IMG/VR virus record: IMGVR_UViG_3300034759_000219
Source of the DNA: an uncultured virus (IMG/VR IMGVR_UViG_3300034759_000219)
Taxonomy: Duplodnaviria; Heunggongvirae; Uroviricota; Caudoviricetes
DNA: 20,000 nt
Direction: 5' to 3' (one strand)
Shown here: positions 4,903 through 16,703 of the stretch, in pieces
How the letters are laid out: each line of letters opens with the position of its first letter
Position numbering within the stretch: the first letter of the stretch is position 1
Made by a program: the position numbers and the translations under genes
The notes under the pieces: model-generated
Told to the model about the DNA's origin: nothing
Seen by the model: only the letters and a program-made list of their open reading frames with translations
The model's database searches: none

Positions 4903-6045
4903 ATGTTTGAATCTAAATCACTAAGCAGGATGATAAGCGATGTCGTAACAAGTATAGTATCAAAAACAAACATAGAGTCTGTAGAACCTGGTACAGTGCT
5001 TAGGTAGCTTATAGACTAGCAGGCATTGCAGGTATACGAATTACAAAGGTTTGTGTAGCTTTTGGCTTCATCTACCTTTTTAACAGAATAGTCAGGTCCA
5101 TTTTTGGATACGATTGCGACAATTTTTGGCTTAGCACGTCAGCCTTAGACAGTCGTCTAGTCTGTTGGTGGGATAAGGTTCTATACAGAAACTGGGGATT
5201 AGATTTGTAACTACATTAGTGATAGCTTCTTCAGTGAAAACCAGGTTATTGTGTATGACAAGTATGGCGGGTAGTATAACGTAGAACGCACCTAGATACC
5301 ATAGTACAAGATGTCACACCAATATGTCACATTAAACTAGACACCGATAGAAATAGCGAGAGAATCTATTTCGGCTGGCGAGATAAATTAGTACACACCT
5401 ACAATACCAGGTGTGTTGGTTACTAATACATCAAACCTACAACTTGTACAAAGCGCAGAAACAGATTCATAGCTTAGATACAGAATATAGTAGCATCTAA
5501 ATAGCTATAGAATGGCTACGTCTTAGTAGCTTAGGCTATAGTAGATGTCCGTACCTGGTGTCTAGGATTAGCGTGTTATTGAATTCCCACGTGGTATTGG
5601 ATCTGTGGACGTGTACATACTTGGGCTTGACATAAATACGGATGAATAGCTAATTCAACCTGTCTTGGAGTAGGTCAAGCCGTATGTTTAGGCTGGCATA
5701 GACCTAGATGTGAAGACATTTATAAAGACATACGTCATACTCGGCGGTATTGTAAGATAGGTTTAGAATGCCAATCAATAGAACGTATTAGACCAAATAG
5801 AGTCAGTTTAGCGGTCTGCGATAGACATAATCCAGCCTGGTGGTACAATGAACAAATTCGACTTATTGAGCCAAATAATTCGCAGTTGCGATCTTATCAA
5901 GACCATAGACGATTTTGCGGTTTATATAAAGTAGCCATCGAAATTTTAGGTGCCTAATAAGTTGTATTAGGACACCTATTATTGCTCTGAAAAGGAAAAG
6001 TTACTCTTAGCGCCCACAGACTGGCAGGTGTTTAAGATATTATGA
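4903..6045 (+). CDS. Baseplate J/gp47-like protein, 380 aa (31 in-frame TAG by manual count)
   Basis: SD GAGGTG. Motifs PGTVLR*LID*, FLTE*SGPFLDTIATIFGLARQP*T, AETDS*LRYRI, SVPGV*D*RVIEFPRGIGSVDVYI and V*AGI. Ends at TGA 6043-6045. Confidence 0.9.
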
Positions 6046-9746: not shown

Positions 9747-10167
9747 CACATCTGTGTTTGATGGCATCTACTAGGTTGGCTAGCCATAGATATAGGTATT
9801 GGTAAAATAGCAGGATTTATACAGTATATACCAGTACCTGAATGATACGTCTGTATTCAACCACATAAAATAGGCAGGCTCGTTCATACTGTTCCTAGAC
9901 AGTGACACATTGGTACCACTGTCTAACACTGTACAAAACTTCTTTCAAGATAGTTTGTCTGTTAATTTAAACGCGCATTAGTCTACTGACTCTGAAAATG
10001 CAAGCTTGTATATAAGTCTAGTAAGTCAATAGTCTGGTACGAGTACATAGTCTCAGCAAGCTTCCGAGTATGTACAAGTTACAAATGAACTCGAACCACC
10101 TTTTGTGTTTGGCAAGTCTGTGTTTTCGTCTGATAACTTCATTATGTCGTAGTTTTGCAAATCCTAA
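9733..10167 (+). CDS. Hypothetical protein, ~144 aa
   Basis: TTG 9733 after GGTGGTGA (GTG 9721 or 9724 are alternatives). Open apart from TAG until TAA 10165-10167. Confidence 0.55.
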
Positions 10168-10181
10168 TGTTAGTCACTACT

Positions 10182-10188
10182 GGAGGTG
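10182..10188 (+). promoter_or_regulatory. Shine-Dalgarno GGAGGTG for the tail-fibre gene, whose second codon is TAG
   Basis: GGAGGTG lies 5 nt upstream of ATG 10194, which is followed by TAG 10197-10199. Confidence 0.8.
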
Positions 10189-10193
10189 TGTGT

Positions 10194-10958
10194 ATGTAGT
10201 ACACTCCCGAGACAATCTACGTAGGCAAGATCATAGCTGCAGAATGGGGCCAAAAAATAGAACAGATGTTTCAACGCATGGGCAACTATATGGGTGTAGT
10301 AGACTCGGTATCATAGTTGCCCAATGTATCTGAAGCTGCCGAGTCAGATTGGTACATAGTTAGACAAGAGAGATAGATATATTAGAAGATAAATAACCAA
10401 TGGGAAAACATTGGCGGAGTCTCATATGACCAGCTGATAGGTACCGTGCCAAGGTCATAGCTATCTGGTACGTACGATATAGATATCACTGGTACATAGG
10501 CGCAATAGACAAAGCTATAGACGTAGCATACGATAAATGGCGTAGGTTTCGATGGCACACAGAACATAACAGTTACATAGACTACACCCAATAAGGTGAC
10601 ATTCAACTCATCTGGTGGATAGCAACCTGGCACTACATTCAACGGCTTGGCTTAGATTACAGTCTCATATGAAACAGTTGGAGCATAGTAGGCATCTCAT
10701 ACACATACAAATTACCTAAGCCGAGATGGCGGCACAATGAATACAACCACACTTGTGACTAATTTAAACGCAGACATGGTAGATGGATATCACTAGTCCA
10801 GCTTTTCACTGTCTTCGCATACGCATGATTCAACTTACCTCAACAAAGCAGGCGATACGATGACTGGCAATTTAAATTGTAATTAGGTGGTAAATTGCAA
10901 TTAGAATGCAAATAGCAGACTTGTATTACCGGTCGGGACAAATAAATATGCAACATGA
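10194..10958 (+). CDS. Phage tail fibre protein, 254 aa
   Basis: N-terminus M*YTPETIYVGKIIAAEWGQKIE. Fibre motifs T*AQ*TKL*T*HTINGVGFDGTQNITV, SYETVGA**ASHTH, NLNADMVDGYH*SSF, SHTHDSTYLNKAGDTMTGNL. C-terminus RLVLPVGTNKYAT, then TGA 10956-10958. Confidence 0.9.
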
Positions 10959-10968
10959 GGTGGTATGA

Positions 10969-11439
10969 ATGCCTGTAGCTGGATCTGTGTGGATAGAAGG
11001 GTGCAGTTTAAAATTCATAAACCAATATGGTGTATAGCGTGCCTTGACTGGTACATCACTAGGCTCGACAAGTGCTAAACCTGGGTCTGTATGGGTAAGT
11101 GGCGCTTACATATACTATGTGTGTCAGAATGCGCATATACACATGTGCAATTATAGATATACAAATATAGGCCCCATTCAGGGCAAGCCGGGCTCTGTTT
11201 GGATATCATCACAAGACTTATATTATGTAGATCAAGACGGAGTTATAAGGGAAGCATGTACTGGGTGTGAATAGTACTGCACGTGCGATATGTGTGCTGG
11301 ATGCGATGCGTATTGTTGCGGGGCATGTGATACGACATGCGATGGTTGTGACACATACTCGTTTTGTGGAACATGCGTTGAATGCGACGGGTGTGATGCA
11401 TATTCATGCTAGTGTATGGTATGCGATATAGGTGTCTAA
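10969..11439 (+). CDS. 156-aa protein with three GSVW repeats and a C-terminal Cys-rich CxxC[DE] repeat domain; putative radical SAM substrate or fibre-associated protein
   Basis: SD GAGGTGG. Repeats AGSVWIEG, PGSVWVSG and PGSVWISS. Last 60 aa are CTGCE*YCTCDMCAGCDAYCCGACDTTCDGCDTYSFCGTCVECDGCDAYSC*CMVCDIGV (18 Cys). Ends at TAA 11437-11439. Confidence 0.85.
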
Positions 11440-11473
11440 CAATTGAGTGACTTTAGCTAAAGGAGGCCTGCTG

Positions 11474-12613
11474 TTGCGACACGTCACGCCACACGAGTTG
11501 GTAGGGGCAGTTAGAAATATTGTTGTTGACAATTAGCTTACTTTAAACATCAATTCTGGTGCAGATTAGTGCCAATTATAGTGCGTATACTGCTCGGTAC
11601 GGCCGTTTAACACGCATGACTTTCGAGAAATGACCAAGCCTGAGTTAAGAATATAGCTCGAATTTGCTGGCAGTGTACTTGGTGATAAGCTAAAGCATAT
11701 ACATTTCTTTGGGCGGGAACCATTAATGTCACCGACAATAATTGAAGAAGCGCGTAGGCTTATGCCCAATGTCACCATAACGATAACAACAAACGGTGTT
11801 GCACTCTAGCAGGATAAGCAGTTGTAGAAAATGCTAAAGCGAATCAACGCAGTTGTAACTATACTATCGATTGACGGACCATACCACAATTCACATAGGC
11901 CTACAAGAACTGGAGAAAATTCACTAGATCTAGCAATACAAGCCTGGGAACAACTTGATGATTATAAATTTACGCGCACATCCGTCAGGTCGACATACCT
12001 ACCAGGCGAGAGCCTTGTCGACTATTTCAAATTCTAGCAAGATGTTTTACATGGCTAGAGAATTACGCCAATGCCAGATATACACACAAGTATGTTCGAT
12101 AGCAAAGACGTCGAGGAGAAGGTTCGCGAGCTAGCAGATTATTTTGGCAACCAGGATCCACCATCTGAGTCGTACAAGGGATACCTGTATGAACTTGAAG
12201 GCAAGAGGCGAAAGAGACGTGCGTTTTGTATTGTAGGCATGTTTGCGATTGGACCAGGGCTGGATGTATATACCTGTCATCATTAGCCGGATGATGTCAA
12301 AATAGCCAATATAGCGCAAGGAATTGTGTACGACGAAAACATAAAATTTGTACTAAATGCGCGCAGCATGTCTGTTGACACAGTTGAAAAATGTCTAACA
12401 TGTCACAACAGACAATTTTGCCCAACCATAGGGACGTGCTCAATGTAGTTTCTTAAGGCTGGTAACATTATGGAACCAAATGACAGCTTCTGCGAGTTTT
12501 CCAAGGGATTCTAGCATGGATGTTTCTACTGGTTATCGCTACGCACGAGAAGTAAACTGCTTGACGCTTTGAACAAGATAGGAGGAGATGCATATGAAAA
12601 TACAGTTTCTTGA
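11474..12613 (+). CDS. Radical SAM enzyme with C-terminal SPASM domain, ~379 aa
   Basis: SD AAGGAGG 11460-11466 and TTG start. CxxxCxxC is CQL*CVYC (11570-11593). Also FFGREPL, ITTNG and LSIDG..HNSHR. SPASM cysteines in C..FAIGPGLDVYTCH, CLTCHNRQFCPTIGTC and FC. Joins three track fragments via TAG. Confidence 0.92.
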
Positions 12614-13493: not shown

Positions 13494-15413
13494 ATGCCAT
13501 TACCGTATTGGATTGAGCATGACCAAAATGACAATGCAACTGGATACGTCTATGTAAAAGTGCCATCTATACCAGCTAACTAGCAAACTGCTATAACAGC
13601 TAGTTTAGATGCATCGTGCCAACCTGATGGCTCTAACACGTTTGTACTATTTGACGACTTTTTGTAGACTATCAATACTAATGTATATGACGTGTTTACT
13701 GGTCCGAATGCTCAATAGACAATAGAAAATGGCAAGTTAAAGCTCGTATGTAATAACTCAGTGCATACAGGCGCAACACTGATATCAAAGCAGTAGTTTC
13801 CAGACCAATAGTACATCCTAGAGTTTCTAGGTTGCGTTGTAAGTTAGTACAATGGTGGTGCCCCAACACTAAACATTGGCTTTACAAACAAGTCTCAGTA
13901 TGACAGCTCATACTATTTCAGATATGCGCCAATCGCAGCATAGGAAATATACGAGTATACATCCTATAATAGAGTTATGGTATCTGTATTCAATGACCAA
14001 TGGGAGTCTGGCTCATTGTCCCAGTATGAAACGATCATAAACAAATGGGCCCGAGTTGTATAGTCTATATCGTTTACACAGAAAAAGACTATAGGTACAT
14101 TCAAATGGGGCAACTCATTAGCTACGGTAACATCCCCTGTCGGACAGTAGCTAGACGGGTCGAAGTATTTTCAAATCAACTTTGGAGAGTATCAGAGCAA
14201 CAAAATAGCCTATCTTGATTGGTTCGCTTTGAGAAAATACGCAGATGTAGAGCCAACTGTGTCTGTACAACAGGTCGGGCAGATGTATGTCATAACTATT
14301 ACAAATCCAAACTAGTACTAGCTCAGTGACTACCAAATTAAGATACCAATCTCGTAGTTGTCTGTTACATCACCATCCACAGGAATTAGGTTTGACACAA
14401 ACCTAAGGCAAATAACTATTCAGACGGTTAGAAAGCTGGTATAGCAGAATGGCTACACAGCATCTACACGTAGAGTGTAGACTGGATTGATATCACAACC
14501 AGTGCCTCTTTCAACTAAGGTCGTCGGCCTAAACAGTGCAAGTATTGTGAATATGGCTATACCAGCATCTACATAGATCAAATACTCAGGCAACACATCG
14601 CAGTCTGGATTTTCAGTATCTACAATCATAGGTAGCGAAGTCATTGGCGTACCGCCTGCTGTACAACCGTACTTGTACTATCCACTCACGAGCGACTTTT
14701 TAAACTACGGTACATAGGGTTCAGCGTGGGATCCAAACTAGGTGTTTAATGTCAGTATATCCGCTACAGGCTATTCTTCTATACAAACATAGTAGAATTT
14801 TAATGGTACCAACTCGAGGATAAGAGTACGTACATACGAGTCTTTGGATACGATATACAAAAATAGAAGCTGGTCAATTTCACTTTGGCTTTCCTAGCGC
14901 CAACTGGCTGGTACAGTGTACAACTATGGCTATGGTGGTTCATCAGTCAGCTCGACAAGCGAAGCTACAGGCCATACACTTAGGATAATCAACTACAACA
15001 ACACTCCAATTCTTTAGATTGTAGCTTTTTAGGCAGGACAAACAAACGAGACATCCACGTATTTTGACGGCTTTAAGTATATAAGCAAGAGTGGGTATGT
15101 AAGGATATACGGTGTAGTTATAAACGCGAATGTACTAAACCATGTGGTTCTAACCTATAACAACAGTACGAAAAGGCTTTGTATGTATCTGAACTCGAAC
15201 CTTGTACATGACAACGTCGAGTTCACAAACCCGATGTACTGGAACCAGTATGACAAAGAGCCGTTCACTATAGGATAGCACACATACGACGATGGAGGCT
15301 CTGAAGGTCCGCCAAGCAACTTCTTCGATGGGTTCATATAGCACTTTATGTACTATACAGATACCGTATTAACACAGGACAATGTTAACTTCTTGTACAA
15401 TATGCGCACTTAA
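13494..15413 (+). CDS. DUF2341-like plus LamG/ConA-like domain protein, 639 aa (putative receptor- or glycan-binding tail appendage)
   Basis: DUF2341-type motifs MPLPYWIE..YVKVPSIPAN..DGSNTFVLFDDF, YLDWFALRKYADVEPTVS and ITITNPN*Y*LSDYQIKI..GIRF. LamG motifs YYPL, **NFNGTNSRI, WSISLW, NHVVLTYN, MYLNS, FTIG*, FFDGFI and LTQDNVNFLYN. Ends at TAA 15411-15413. Confidence 0.85.
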
Positions 15414-15457: not shown

Positions 15458-16198
15458 ATGGCAAAGGTACCAAGTGTTGTTATAGCTACTCCAGCATATG
15501 GAAACATGGTACATGTGAATTATCTGCACACAATCTTTTCACTTCAACAGCGCCGTGATATCAGGATAACACTGCTTACAATTGGAAATGAGTCGCTAAT
15601 TACAAGAGCACGAAATAACCTTTTAAGCATGTACTACCACCATTTTTAGGATTGGGATTATTTGTTGTTCTTAGATGCAGATATTGGTGTAGATGCGTCT
15701 GGAATAGTTACAATGGCAAATCGCAGGTTAGATATGTGTTGTGCACCTTATAGGCTTAAAAACCCAGCTGTTGTACAACTTGCTGTGACTAAGGTTATAG
15801 ACGACTCGACCTTCCCACTTGTAGAAGTTGAACATGCCGCAACTGGTGTCATGATGCTCAGCAGAAAACTAGTTGAAGATGTTGTTAGTTATGCCAAGAA
15901 GAACAATTTGTACTATCCAGATCCAATGTAGTATACAGAAAACAATGTAGATACAAACGTAAGACGGGACATATATGACGTGTTTCAAGTCGGGATAGAC
16001 AAGGACATAAATACATATCTGTCTGAAGATTACTGGTTTTGTAGGCTTGTAAGACAACTTGGATACAACGTGTACGTAGACATGTCAGTTGCAACAGTAC
16101 ATTCAGGCACACTTGCACTACCGTACAATATTTCCATGGCTGTCAGGCCTACGGCGCAGGAGGATGAAAGCAATGAAGACACAACTGAATCTAAGTGA
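15458..16198 (+). CDS. GT-A fold glycosyltransferase-like protein, 246 aa
   Basis: SD GAGGTGA. Motifs VVIATPAYG, ESLITRARN, DYLLFLDADI (DxD), ATGVMMLSR, YLSEDYWFCR and VHSG. Three same-frame track ORFs are joined by 2 TAG. Confidence 0.85.
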
Positions 16199-16703
16199 TA
16201 ATGTATGTGTAGCTTAGCCTACACAGTCGAATGACTCAGTCCGTATAGTAGGGCATGTATGTGTATATTAGCAAGACAAACACGGCAATGTCAGAGTCGT
16301 TGCTGAAAGCGACAACACAATTACACAAGCAGGTAAGCAGATGATATACCAATTTTTACAATCAACATCAAGCCAATAGGTGGCATAGAACATAAACTAC
16401 ATAGCAGTTGGTACAGATAATACACAACCGTCTTAGTCTAATACCAAGCTATACAACGAAATAGGCAGGAAACAGATTCTGTCCAGGTACATAGGCGATA
16501 CAGTCGCAAAGTTTTCAGTCTAGTTTGAAATGAATGAATAGAACCCACCTGCAGGTCAGGCTATTACGGAAGCTGGGCTGTTTTAGAACGGTACAGCTCA
16601 ACCTGATACTGGTACATTATTTGCCAGGGTCCTGTTTTAGCCTGCAATATTGAAACAAGAAGACGAGATGCTTGTTGTAGTCTGGACGGTATCTATCACT
16701 TGA
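16173..16703 (+). CDS. Tail-collar/baseplate fibre-attachment-like protein, 176 aa
   Basis: SD AGGAGG. Motifs NTITQAG, YIAVGTDNTQPS*SNTKLYNEIGRK, FEMNE*N, ITEAGLF, GTLFARVLF and K...LVVVWTVSI. Ends at TGA 16701-16703. Confidence 0.8.

Follow-up and report, generated by a model that had tools for sequence, protein, structure and literature searches.

A cysteine-tailed protein and its radical SAM neighbor in a phage tail module: a candidate system for crosslinking fiber tips

Introduction

Do some tailed phages crosslink the tips of their own fibers with a radical S-adenosylmethionine (SAM) enzyme? The question is raised by a locus in the uncultured virus IMGVR_UViG_3300034759_000219 (IMG/VR; Caudoviricetes), of which a stretch of 20,000 nucleotides (nt), hereafter called the window, was analyzed. 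Directly after a tail fiber gene, the window encodes a protein of 156 amino acids (aa) with a cysteine-rich tail (open reading frame (ORF) 10969–11439), followed by a radical SAM enzyme. A preliminary description of this DNA, made from its letters alone, had read the pair as a system akin to those that make peptides that ribosomes synthesize and that are modified after translation (RiPPs), yet acting on a virion or fiber-tip protein rather than on a secreted peptide. To our knowledge, radical SAM enzymes form thioether and cyclophane crosslinks in small secreted peptides and in a single subunit of a bacterial enzyme; virus particles are not known to carry such links, and no papers on radical SAM modification of phage fiber proteins were found in the literature searched.

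We put the probability at roughly 0.6 that the enzyme, which has no RiPP recognition element (RRE), works without an intermediary on a fiber-tip protein, in whose flexible tail it installs several Cys-to-Asp/Glu thioether links. Two elements of this picture are new here: an adaptor domain shared by proteins with Cys tails and proteins with His-x-Asp tails, and a covariation between the type of tail and the clade of the accompanying enzyme.

The cysteine-tailed protein and its enzyme

The gene of the 156-aa protein starts with ATG (10969), has its own Shine–Dalgarno sequence (GAGGTGG) 5 nt upstream of it, and contains in-frame TAG at codons 23, 102, and 148. Its product falls into two parts (Table 1). 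AlphaFold2 (AF2), run with a 60-row alignment, models residues 1–98 with confidence as an all-beta domain of three repeat units (predicted local distance difference test score (pLDDT) of 78–98 per block), and the Cys tail stays below a pLDDT of 50. Out of 21 cysteines, 18 lie in residues 97–152; given a Cys background of 0.99% in the other ORFs, the binomial probability of at least 18 Cys in 61 residues is 7.6e-22. The seven motifs that had been listed for this tail (CTGCE, CAGCD, CGACD, CDGCD, CVECD, CDGCD, and CMVCD) are all found in the translation, and the count of 18 Cys near the C-terminus of a protein directly behind the tail fiber holds as well. The remark that most of the tail is invisible under the standard code is also correct: the standard-code frame (ORF 11044–11274) is halted by the TAG at 11272, so that everything past residue 101 disappears. 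The tail as a DNA tandem repeat was ruled out, as the repeat check found none in its coding region.

The radical SAM gene begins 34 nt past the stop of the 156-aa protein when TTG is taken as its start, and AAAGGAGG then lies upstream at 11459–11466; the alternative start GTG at 11447 would give 388 aa. With the TTG start, the CxxxCxxC motif begins at residue 33, as had been noted, and it is invariant in our enzyme alignment (A5). The Pfam family PF04055 is matched at 3.6e-16 (60.2 bits vs a gathering cut-off of 29.5), which makes the protein a member of the radical SAM superfamily. As the preliminary description had it, no RRE-sized region precedes the motif.

The C-terminal part follows the pattern C..G(x4-5)C, gap, Cx2Cx5Cx5C, gap, C. 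All seven of these cysteines are kept in an alignment of the window enzyme with its two orthologues from the loci L097 and L089 (described below), and an eighth, C350, is unconserved. In the canonical SPASM motif the last spacing is x3, compared with x5 in the window enzyme. We use the label SPASM on the basis of the Cys pattern and of the full-length alignment to PapB- and CteB-type profiles; both the PapB profile and the PDB entry 5WGG align through the C-terminal Cys region.

Among the NCBIfam families, PapB (NF047865) is the best match of the window enzyme (69.3 bits), followed by the SCIFF maturase (66.4 bits) and then by CbpB, RumMC (a sactipeptide maturase, 48.2 bits), and QhpD. No close relative of it was found in the word-indexed protein collection or in GenBank phages, and neither phmmer against PDB sequences nor a scan of IMG/VR returned a match. 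Four tblastn matches labeled as phage proved uninformative on phages; the one inspected, L001 (MT835472.1, "Bacteriophage sp.", 91 kb), is an ordinary SCIFF locus with a typical bacterial SCIFF peptide and maturase. This locus adjoins a large multi-pass membrane-protein gene that resembles export proteins of the SecDF type (from translation alone) and therefore looks bacterial, at least there.

Relatives with cysteine tails

Three further members with a Cys tail were found in a metagenome set, namely L033, L089, and L097. The L089 contig, which uses the standard code, encodes on one strand, in the same order as the window, a 343-aa fiber, a 195-aa protein with 25 tail Cys, and a 364-aa radical SAM enzyme. 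L097, also in the standard code, has a 131-aa protein with the tail CTACESACQSYSCGTCESTCQAYCGACDAACQGGIG and then a radical SAM enzyme; this contig ends before any fiber gene, and that of L033 stops 77 nt past the Cys-tail gene. The enzyme is present at all three Cys-tail loci with downstream DNA, the window included, so the predicted pairing of Cys protein and enzyme recurs, in L089 together with the fiber. The Cys-tail proteins of the window and L097 share 35% identity (E 8e-24), with the tails aligned as well, and the enzymes share 31% over 350 residues (151 bits, E 2e-46). The match between the window enzyme and the enzyme of the Thermus phage Cumys reaches merely 27.7 bits.

A full HMMER search (phmmer) with residues 1–95 of the window protein returned 173 proteins at E ≤ 1e-3. 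Among the matches listed (149 besides the window's own), 48 carry at least six H-x-[D/N] motifs and only two, P0009 and P0060, have Cys-repeat tails; others have a globular C-terminal domain, bear the repeat domain at their C-terminus, or consist of the domain alone. A tblastn search of GenBank phages matched residues 1–91 only, in two hypothetical proteins of the Thermus phages phiMa and Cumys, and the match to phiMa_29 (E 7e-13) comprises the N-terminal triple GSxW[IV]EG-type repeat. For the 156-aa protein, the word-indexed collection yielded only the window's own entry, and scans of IMG/VR with this protein, P0009, and P0060 gave no match.

At the level of structure, Foldseek found nothing for the 156-aa model in the PDB at E ≤ 1e-3, and BFVD contains one clear structural match, an unnamed viral protein of 342 aa. 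A fold comparison indicated a weak likeness to beta-prism II lectins, with a best Z of 4.4 over 86 residues; this match, to an MMBL-lectin bacteriocin, is a weak lead and unfit as a fold assignment.

The six Cys tails now at hand (window, L097, L089, L033, P0009, and P0060) have a single rule in common, which is that the residue next after Cys is often D/E or Q/N (9/18, 6/9, 23/25, 10/16, 12/15, and 20/23 of their cysteines). In the window and L097, the tails are built from CxxC[D/E], with the acid at +4 of the first Cys. The CX3[D/E] register, which had been noted for the window tail, is not conserved: the tails of L089, L033, P0009, and P0060 have a Cys at every fourth residue and the acid at +1/+5.

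The repeat tails also close with a short conserved hydrophobic cap, seen in the window, L097, L089, L033, P0009, and the His-x-Asp proteins. The Cys tails end in IGV, GGIG, VEEVGW, or DIWAY, and many His-x-Asp tails in P-x-[YF]VGP or QPVRV. Such a cap could be a recognition or capping element.

The family matches of the two orthologous enzymes repeat those of the window. PapB is again the top NCBIfam match in L097 (139.7 bits) and L089 (121.7 bits); second comes the SCIFF maturase in L097 and a nif11-like maturase in L089, where the SCIFF maturase is also close to the top, and third in both is QhpD (118 bits). PapB, the SCIFF maturase, and QhpD are all annotated in NCBIfam as thioether-forming. 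A joint profile of the L097 and L089 enzymes has its closest solved structure in 5WGG/5WHY (5e-29, chain residues 105–429), which we take to be CteB, the SCIFF thioether synthase, and it also matches the anaerobic sulfatase maturase structures 4K36-39 (E 1e-9). An AF2 model of the L097 enzyme (8-row alignment, mean pLDDT 51) was too low in confidence for a fold search. The suspected kinship with thioether maturases is thus supported for three enzymes.

It is conceivable, if unlikely, that the enzyme modifies the adjacent tail by another chemistry, such as sactionine formation (S to C-alpha), linkage to other acceptors, or a formylglycine-type conversion of Cys. All family scores lie far under the cut-offs, RumMC and the sulfatase maturases are among the matches, and the donor–acceptor register varies across the tails, all of which would suit such a chemistry. 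However, the three best named families of the L097 enzyme are all thioether formers, and acidic or amide residues accompany Cys in six of six tails.

Sister loci and covariation of tail and enzyme

The Cys tails have a more frequent counterpart in tails of His-x-Asp repeats. A degenerate DNA pattern for two consecutive repeats of the triple-repeat domain retrieved 18 loci from IMG/VR, 80 readable ones from metagenomes, and 25 from genomes, and removal of near-identical loci left 51 non-redundant clusters. A radical SAM gene was counted where an ORF with CxxxCx[YFWH]C lay within 1 kb, and a locus was considered only if the contig continued for at least 250 nt downstream. In IMG/VR, 16 of the 18 loci contain true family members, 15 of them with His-x-Asp tails; the 13 of these with downstream DNA all have a following ORF with CxxxCxxC near its N-terminus, recognized by PF04055 in 12 cases and interrupted by an intein in the thirteenth. 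Across the non-redundant His-x-Asp loci, the radical SAM motif ORF is found downstream in 21 of 24, and on the genome contigs at 4 of 6 loci (4 of 5 if an identical pair is counted once). The clear members without a repeat tail, L007 and L029, are without a radical SAM gene, and L007 has a lysozyme-like gene at that place. The His-x-Asp module has a third gene, which encodes DUF483 with or without a methyltransferase.

Three His-x-Asp loci (L130, L138, and L146) with a radical SAM gene sit on contigs that are assigned to archaea, namely a Nanohaloarchaea metagenome-assembled genome (MAG), a Micrarchaeota MAG, and Halorubellus litoreus, so that the module spans viruses or proviruses of both bacteria and archaea. 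Several enzymes of the His-x-Asp form (L008, L011, L012, L016, L017, L021, and Cumys_12 at L004:6026-7276) end in an HGD-x-x-HGD-x-HGDHTD-like stretch and thus carry a few copies of the presumed substrate motif themselves. This enzyme tail could act as a pseudo-substrate, be modified by the enzyme itself, or bind a metal.

The enzymes that go with the two kinds of tail are of different clades. Those of Cumys, L011, and L012, all from the His-x-Asp form, have the cyclophane synthases AmcB/YhhB/DynA and the anaerobic sulfatase maturase as their best matches. With three of three Cys-tail enzymes of the thioether type and three of three tested His-x-Asp enzymes of the cyclophane type, tail chemistry and enzyme clade covary.

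This covariation bears on the proposal that the Cys array binds metal (Zn, Fe, or Fe-S) or forms disulfides as a structural tip, with the radical SAM enzyme acting elsewhere. The seven CxxC units of the window tail invite this thought, AF2 leaves the tail unfolded when no ligands are present, and in Thermus phages a role in DNA modification has been proposed for the related "rSAM module", which occurs in diverse phages (bioRxiv 10.1101/2024.08.14.607894). The word "histidine" is absent from the passages of that paper on the module. Nonetheless, an enzyme of the peptide-maturase type adjoins the tail gene in 3/3 Cys-tail and 21/24 His-x-Asp loci and is absent from the tail-less members, its clade switches with the tail chemistry, and no nucleotide-modification genes adjoin the pair in the window (Pfam, PHROG). 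We hold a purely metal- or disulfide-bound tip to be improbable.

The link to the tail fiber

The gene upstream of the pair matches eight PHROG families, six of them annotated as tail fiber protein, and only 10 nt separate it from the gene of the 156-aa protein. In L009, L017, and L020, a fiber-type N-terminal part is fused ahead of the triple-repeat domain, and this part ends R[LVF]VLP[VI]G[AT]DK[YW]. The 12 C-terminal residues of the window fiber are identical at 10 positions to the L020 segment that directly precedes the domain; the L089 fiber ends likewise, with RVVLPVGTDKWAT. As some phages have in a single polypeptide what is split over two adjacent genes here, we infer that the 156-aa protein is a distal component of the tail fiber, sitting at its end. 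The fusions and the junction motif speak for a fiber-type protein and not for a small secreted peptide, in agreement with the earlier suggestion.

The pair might instead make a product outside the virion, for example a large effector or bacteriocin of RiPP-like type that is set free at lysis, or an anti-defense protein that acts inside the cell and merely has its gene in the late operon. The 156-aa protein is indeed made as a polypeptide of its own, from a separate ribosome-binding site, and its presence in the virion is a prediction. Considering the domain's fusion to fiber-type N-terminal parts in three loci, and its position directly behind a fiber gene that ends in the junction motif, kept in both the window and L089, such a product seems very improbable to us.

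Proposed mechanism and its weighing

In the proposed route, the 156-aa protein would consist of a folded triple beta-repeat domain and a flexible Cys/Asp/Glu tail displayed on the distal fiber. The adjacent RRE-less radical SAM enzyme would recognize the Cys tail directly and, through SAM-derived radical chemistry, form several intramolecular crosslinks from Cys sulfur to side-chain carbons of Asp/Glu. Crosslinking would occur before or during fiber assembly and yield a covalently stapled, compact fiber tip. The pair would then represent the Cys form of a module that is widespread among phages and has a common domain; in this module, a Cys/acid tail goes with an enzyme of the thioether clade, and a His-x-Asp tail with one of the cyclophane clade and a DUF483/methyltransferase partner. 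The sequences show the anatomy of the genes, their homology, the conserved adjacency, and the covariation of tail type and enzyme clade. The tail as the substrate, the thioether chemistry, the identity of the linked residues, and the virion as the location of the product are predicted steps of this scheme.

Several points weigh against the proposal of a thioether-stapled tip. It is built on the comparison of sequences, and its chemistry is a prediction. The NCBIfam scores of 69–140 bits fall far under the curated cut-offs of 340–453, so that the chemistry is extrapolated from distant relatives; a Pfam scan of the window enzyme returned PF04055 only (E up to 10), hence without a match to any SPASM model. 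The covariation is drawn from small numbers, as only three Cys-tail loci have genomic context, and the CX3[D/E] register is not kept in four of the six tails, as noted above. CxxC arrays are also classic ligands of Zn or Fe-S clusters. The window is without the DUF483 partner: no DUF483 or methyltransferase family was matched among its ORFs (Pfam), and none stood out among the ORFs listed for L097 and L089, where no Pfam scan was made. Moreover, adjacency has exceptions. Three of the 24 His-x-Asp loci have no motif nearby (L015, L023, and L066): L015 has an intein-split radical SAM gene about 0.9 kb downstream, L023 has merely 267 nt of downstream DNA, and in L066 the DUF483/methyltransferase gene comes first instead. 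Two identical Vicinamibacteria loci on genome contigs have no motif within 1 kb. The intein of L015 carries a LAGLIDADG endonuclease domain.

A broader conjecture, to which we would give somewhat less than even odds, is that tailed phages own a modular platform for fiber-tip maturation. In such a platform a small beta-prism-like adaptor, fused to the fiber or encoded directly after it, would bear interchangeable repeat tails of Cys with acid or of His-x-Asp, each with a co-inherited clade of radical SAM crosslinking enzyme. RiPP-type staples, thioether or cyclophane, would be set into the structures by which the virion recognizes its host, in the present phage with TAG read as alanine.

If fiber tips are indeed stapled enzymatically, a set of genes that is common in tail modules and has no annotation would find its explanation, and both host recognition and virion robustness would gain a further, post-translational layer. 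Enzymes that need no RRE and work on the tails of folded proteins would also be useful for protein stapling. The natural swap of one domain between two tail chemistries and two enzyme clades offers a clean comparative design, and the L097 and L089 orthologues, which use the standard code, can be expressed without recoding.

Relation to known systems

Among the named families, PapB, the maturase of PapA (freyrasin), scores best with the window enzyme and with its two orthologues, and nearly the whole of its 330-position profile is aligned. Because this profile starts near CxxxCxxC, PapB is likewise without an RRE-sized N-terminal domain, and its substrate motifs pair Cys with Asp (CX3D). The phage enzymes differ in scoring 69–140 bits, well below the equivalog cut-off of 340. 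The candidate substrate differs from PapA too: it is a 156-aa protein of a phage tail module with a folded domain instead of a short leader–core peptide, and every unit of the window tail contains one more Cys (CxxC[D/E]). More generally, ranthipeptide RiPPs carry a thioether between Cys sulfur and a non-alpha carbon of the acceptor residue, and their short leader–core precursor, released as a peptide, has no equivalent here, where a 95-aa folded domain precedes the tail.

The alignment to 5WGG/5WHY covers the radical SAM core and the C-terminal Cys-cluster region. Its first residue in the chain is 105, and the preceding part of about 100 residues has no counterpart in the phage enzymes. SCIFF peptides have about 45 aa and six Cys (an example is found in L001), unlike the 156-aa protein with its folded domain, and the SCIFF maturase family TIGR03974 has a cut-off of 425 bits, far above the 66.4 reached by the window enzyme. 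QhpD, which serves the maturation of quinohemoprotein amine dehydrogenase, is a radical SAM enzyme that crosslinks Cys to Asp/Glu within the subunit of a protein instead of a secreted peptide. Its family (TIGR03906, QhpD/QhpC) has a cut-off of 453, far from the 118 bits of the orthologues; its context is unrelated, and the window has no dehydrogenase genes. With these cut-offs unreached, the enzyme stands outside the PapB, SCIFF-maturase, and QhpD families, although it is most like them.

The "rSAM module" of the Thermus phages Cumys and phiMa opens with a gene that encodes the same triple-repeat domain and lies behind baseplate and collar-fiber genes; the "rSAM protein" gene follows directly downstream, and then DUF483. 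The window shares the radical SAM gene without DUF483. In the Thermus phages the tail is a His-x-Asp stretch of about 250 aa without Cys, and the enzyme belongs to a clade resembling cyclophane synthases and the anaerobic sulfatase maturase. For this sister form, the triceptides (three-residue cyclophanes), made on aromatic-x-X repeats by radical SAM/SPASM enzymes such as YhhB, AmcB, and DynA, are the likely model; the window tail, in contrast, has no His-x-Asp units.

Genetic code and the meaning of TAG

In the window, which holds a tail/baseplate module of a phage, TAG serves as a sense codon. Read with translation table 11, it yields short ORFs only, the longest of 136 aa; with TAG read as a residue, a contiguous set of tail-module genes appears. 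Its 21 ORFs contain 283 in-frame TAG and end with TGA (13) or TAA (8) and never with TAG, a codon use that matches amber-recoded phages (code 15, in which TAG stands for Gln). No tRNA genes were found in the window, hence no suppressor tRNA there.

In this phage, TAG may stand for alanine rather than for glutamine, the reading assumed for recoded phages. The preliminary description had implied alanine, and the evidence on this is mixed. Against the baseplate J profile, the window protein scores 81.4 bits with TAG as Ala, compared with 67.5 as Ser, 64.8 as Gln, and 56.0 as X. As controls, reading the true Gln codons (CAA) as Gln or Ala made no such difference (56.0 vs 56.1 bits), and reading the true Ala codons (GCN) as Gln cost 16 bits. 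The fiber profiles phrog_6722 and phrog_8378 give 38.8 and 38.0 bits with Ala vs 29.0 and 31.3 with Gln. Opposite TAG, 40 orthologue residues comprise E (6), A (6), S (5), L (5), G (5), T (4), and others, and never Q. Composition was also counted in favor of Ala: with TAG as Gln, residues would be 8.8% Gln and 4.6% Ala. On the other hand, four further profiles (the enzyme, phrog_5417, DUF2341, and Laminin_G_3) are neutral or slightly in favor of Gln. The entry for the 156-aa protein in the public protein collection stores TAG as Gln.

Features of the locus and its neighborhood

The features of the locus are collected in Table 1. No plus-strand terminator-like sites were found between the fiber gene, the gene of the 156-aa protein, and the radical SAM gene. 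Promoter-like sites occur at chance level (12 found vs 12.1 expected), and the observed/expected ratio of the GC dinucleotide in the window is 1.22.

Table 1. Coordinates of the Cys-tail protein, its radical SAM neighbor, and surrounding features in the window
Feature	Position	Strand	Remarks
Baseplate J/wedge protein gene	4903..6045		Pfam, PHROG
Tail fiber gene	10155..10958	+	267 aa, 17 in-frame TAG; ends SRLVLPVGTNKYAT
Triple beta-repeat domain, residues 1–95	10969..11253	+	three GSVW[IV]-type repeats; AF2; 173 matches; aligns with phiMa_29, Cumys_13
Cys/Asp/Glu-rich tail, residues 96–156	11254..11436	+	18 Cys; seven CxxC[D/E]; TAG codons 102, 148; ends CDIGV
Hydrophobic tail cap	11425..11436		
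Radical SAM gene	11474..12613	+	379 aa from TTG 11474; 11 in-frame TAG; PF04055
CxxxCxxC motif (C33, C37, C40; TTG numbering)	11570..11593	+	CQL[TAG]CVYC, residues 33–40
Seven C-terminal Cys (C252, C268, C307, C310, C316, C322, C340)	12227..12493	+	SPASM-like
DUF2341 protein gene	13494..15413		downstream of the pair; matches Laminin_G_3 (concanavalin-like) weakly, under the cut-off of Pfam
Glycosyltransferase-like protein gene	15458..16198		PF13506 borderline; phrog_1574 at 9e-21
Fiber-like protein gene	16251..16703		phrog_5417; after the glycosyltransferase-like gene

The last three genes of the table possibly provide extra receptor-binding or decorating functions.

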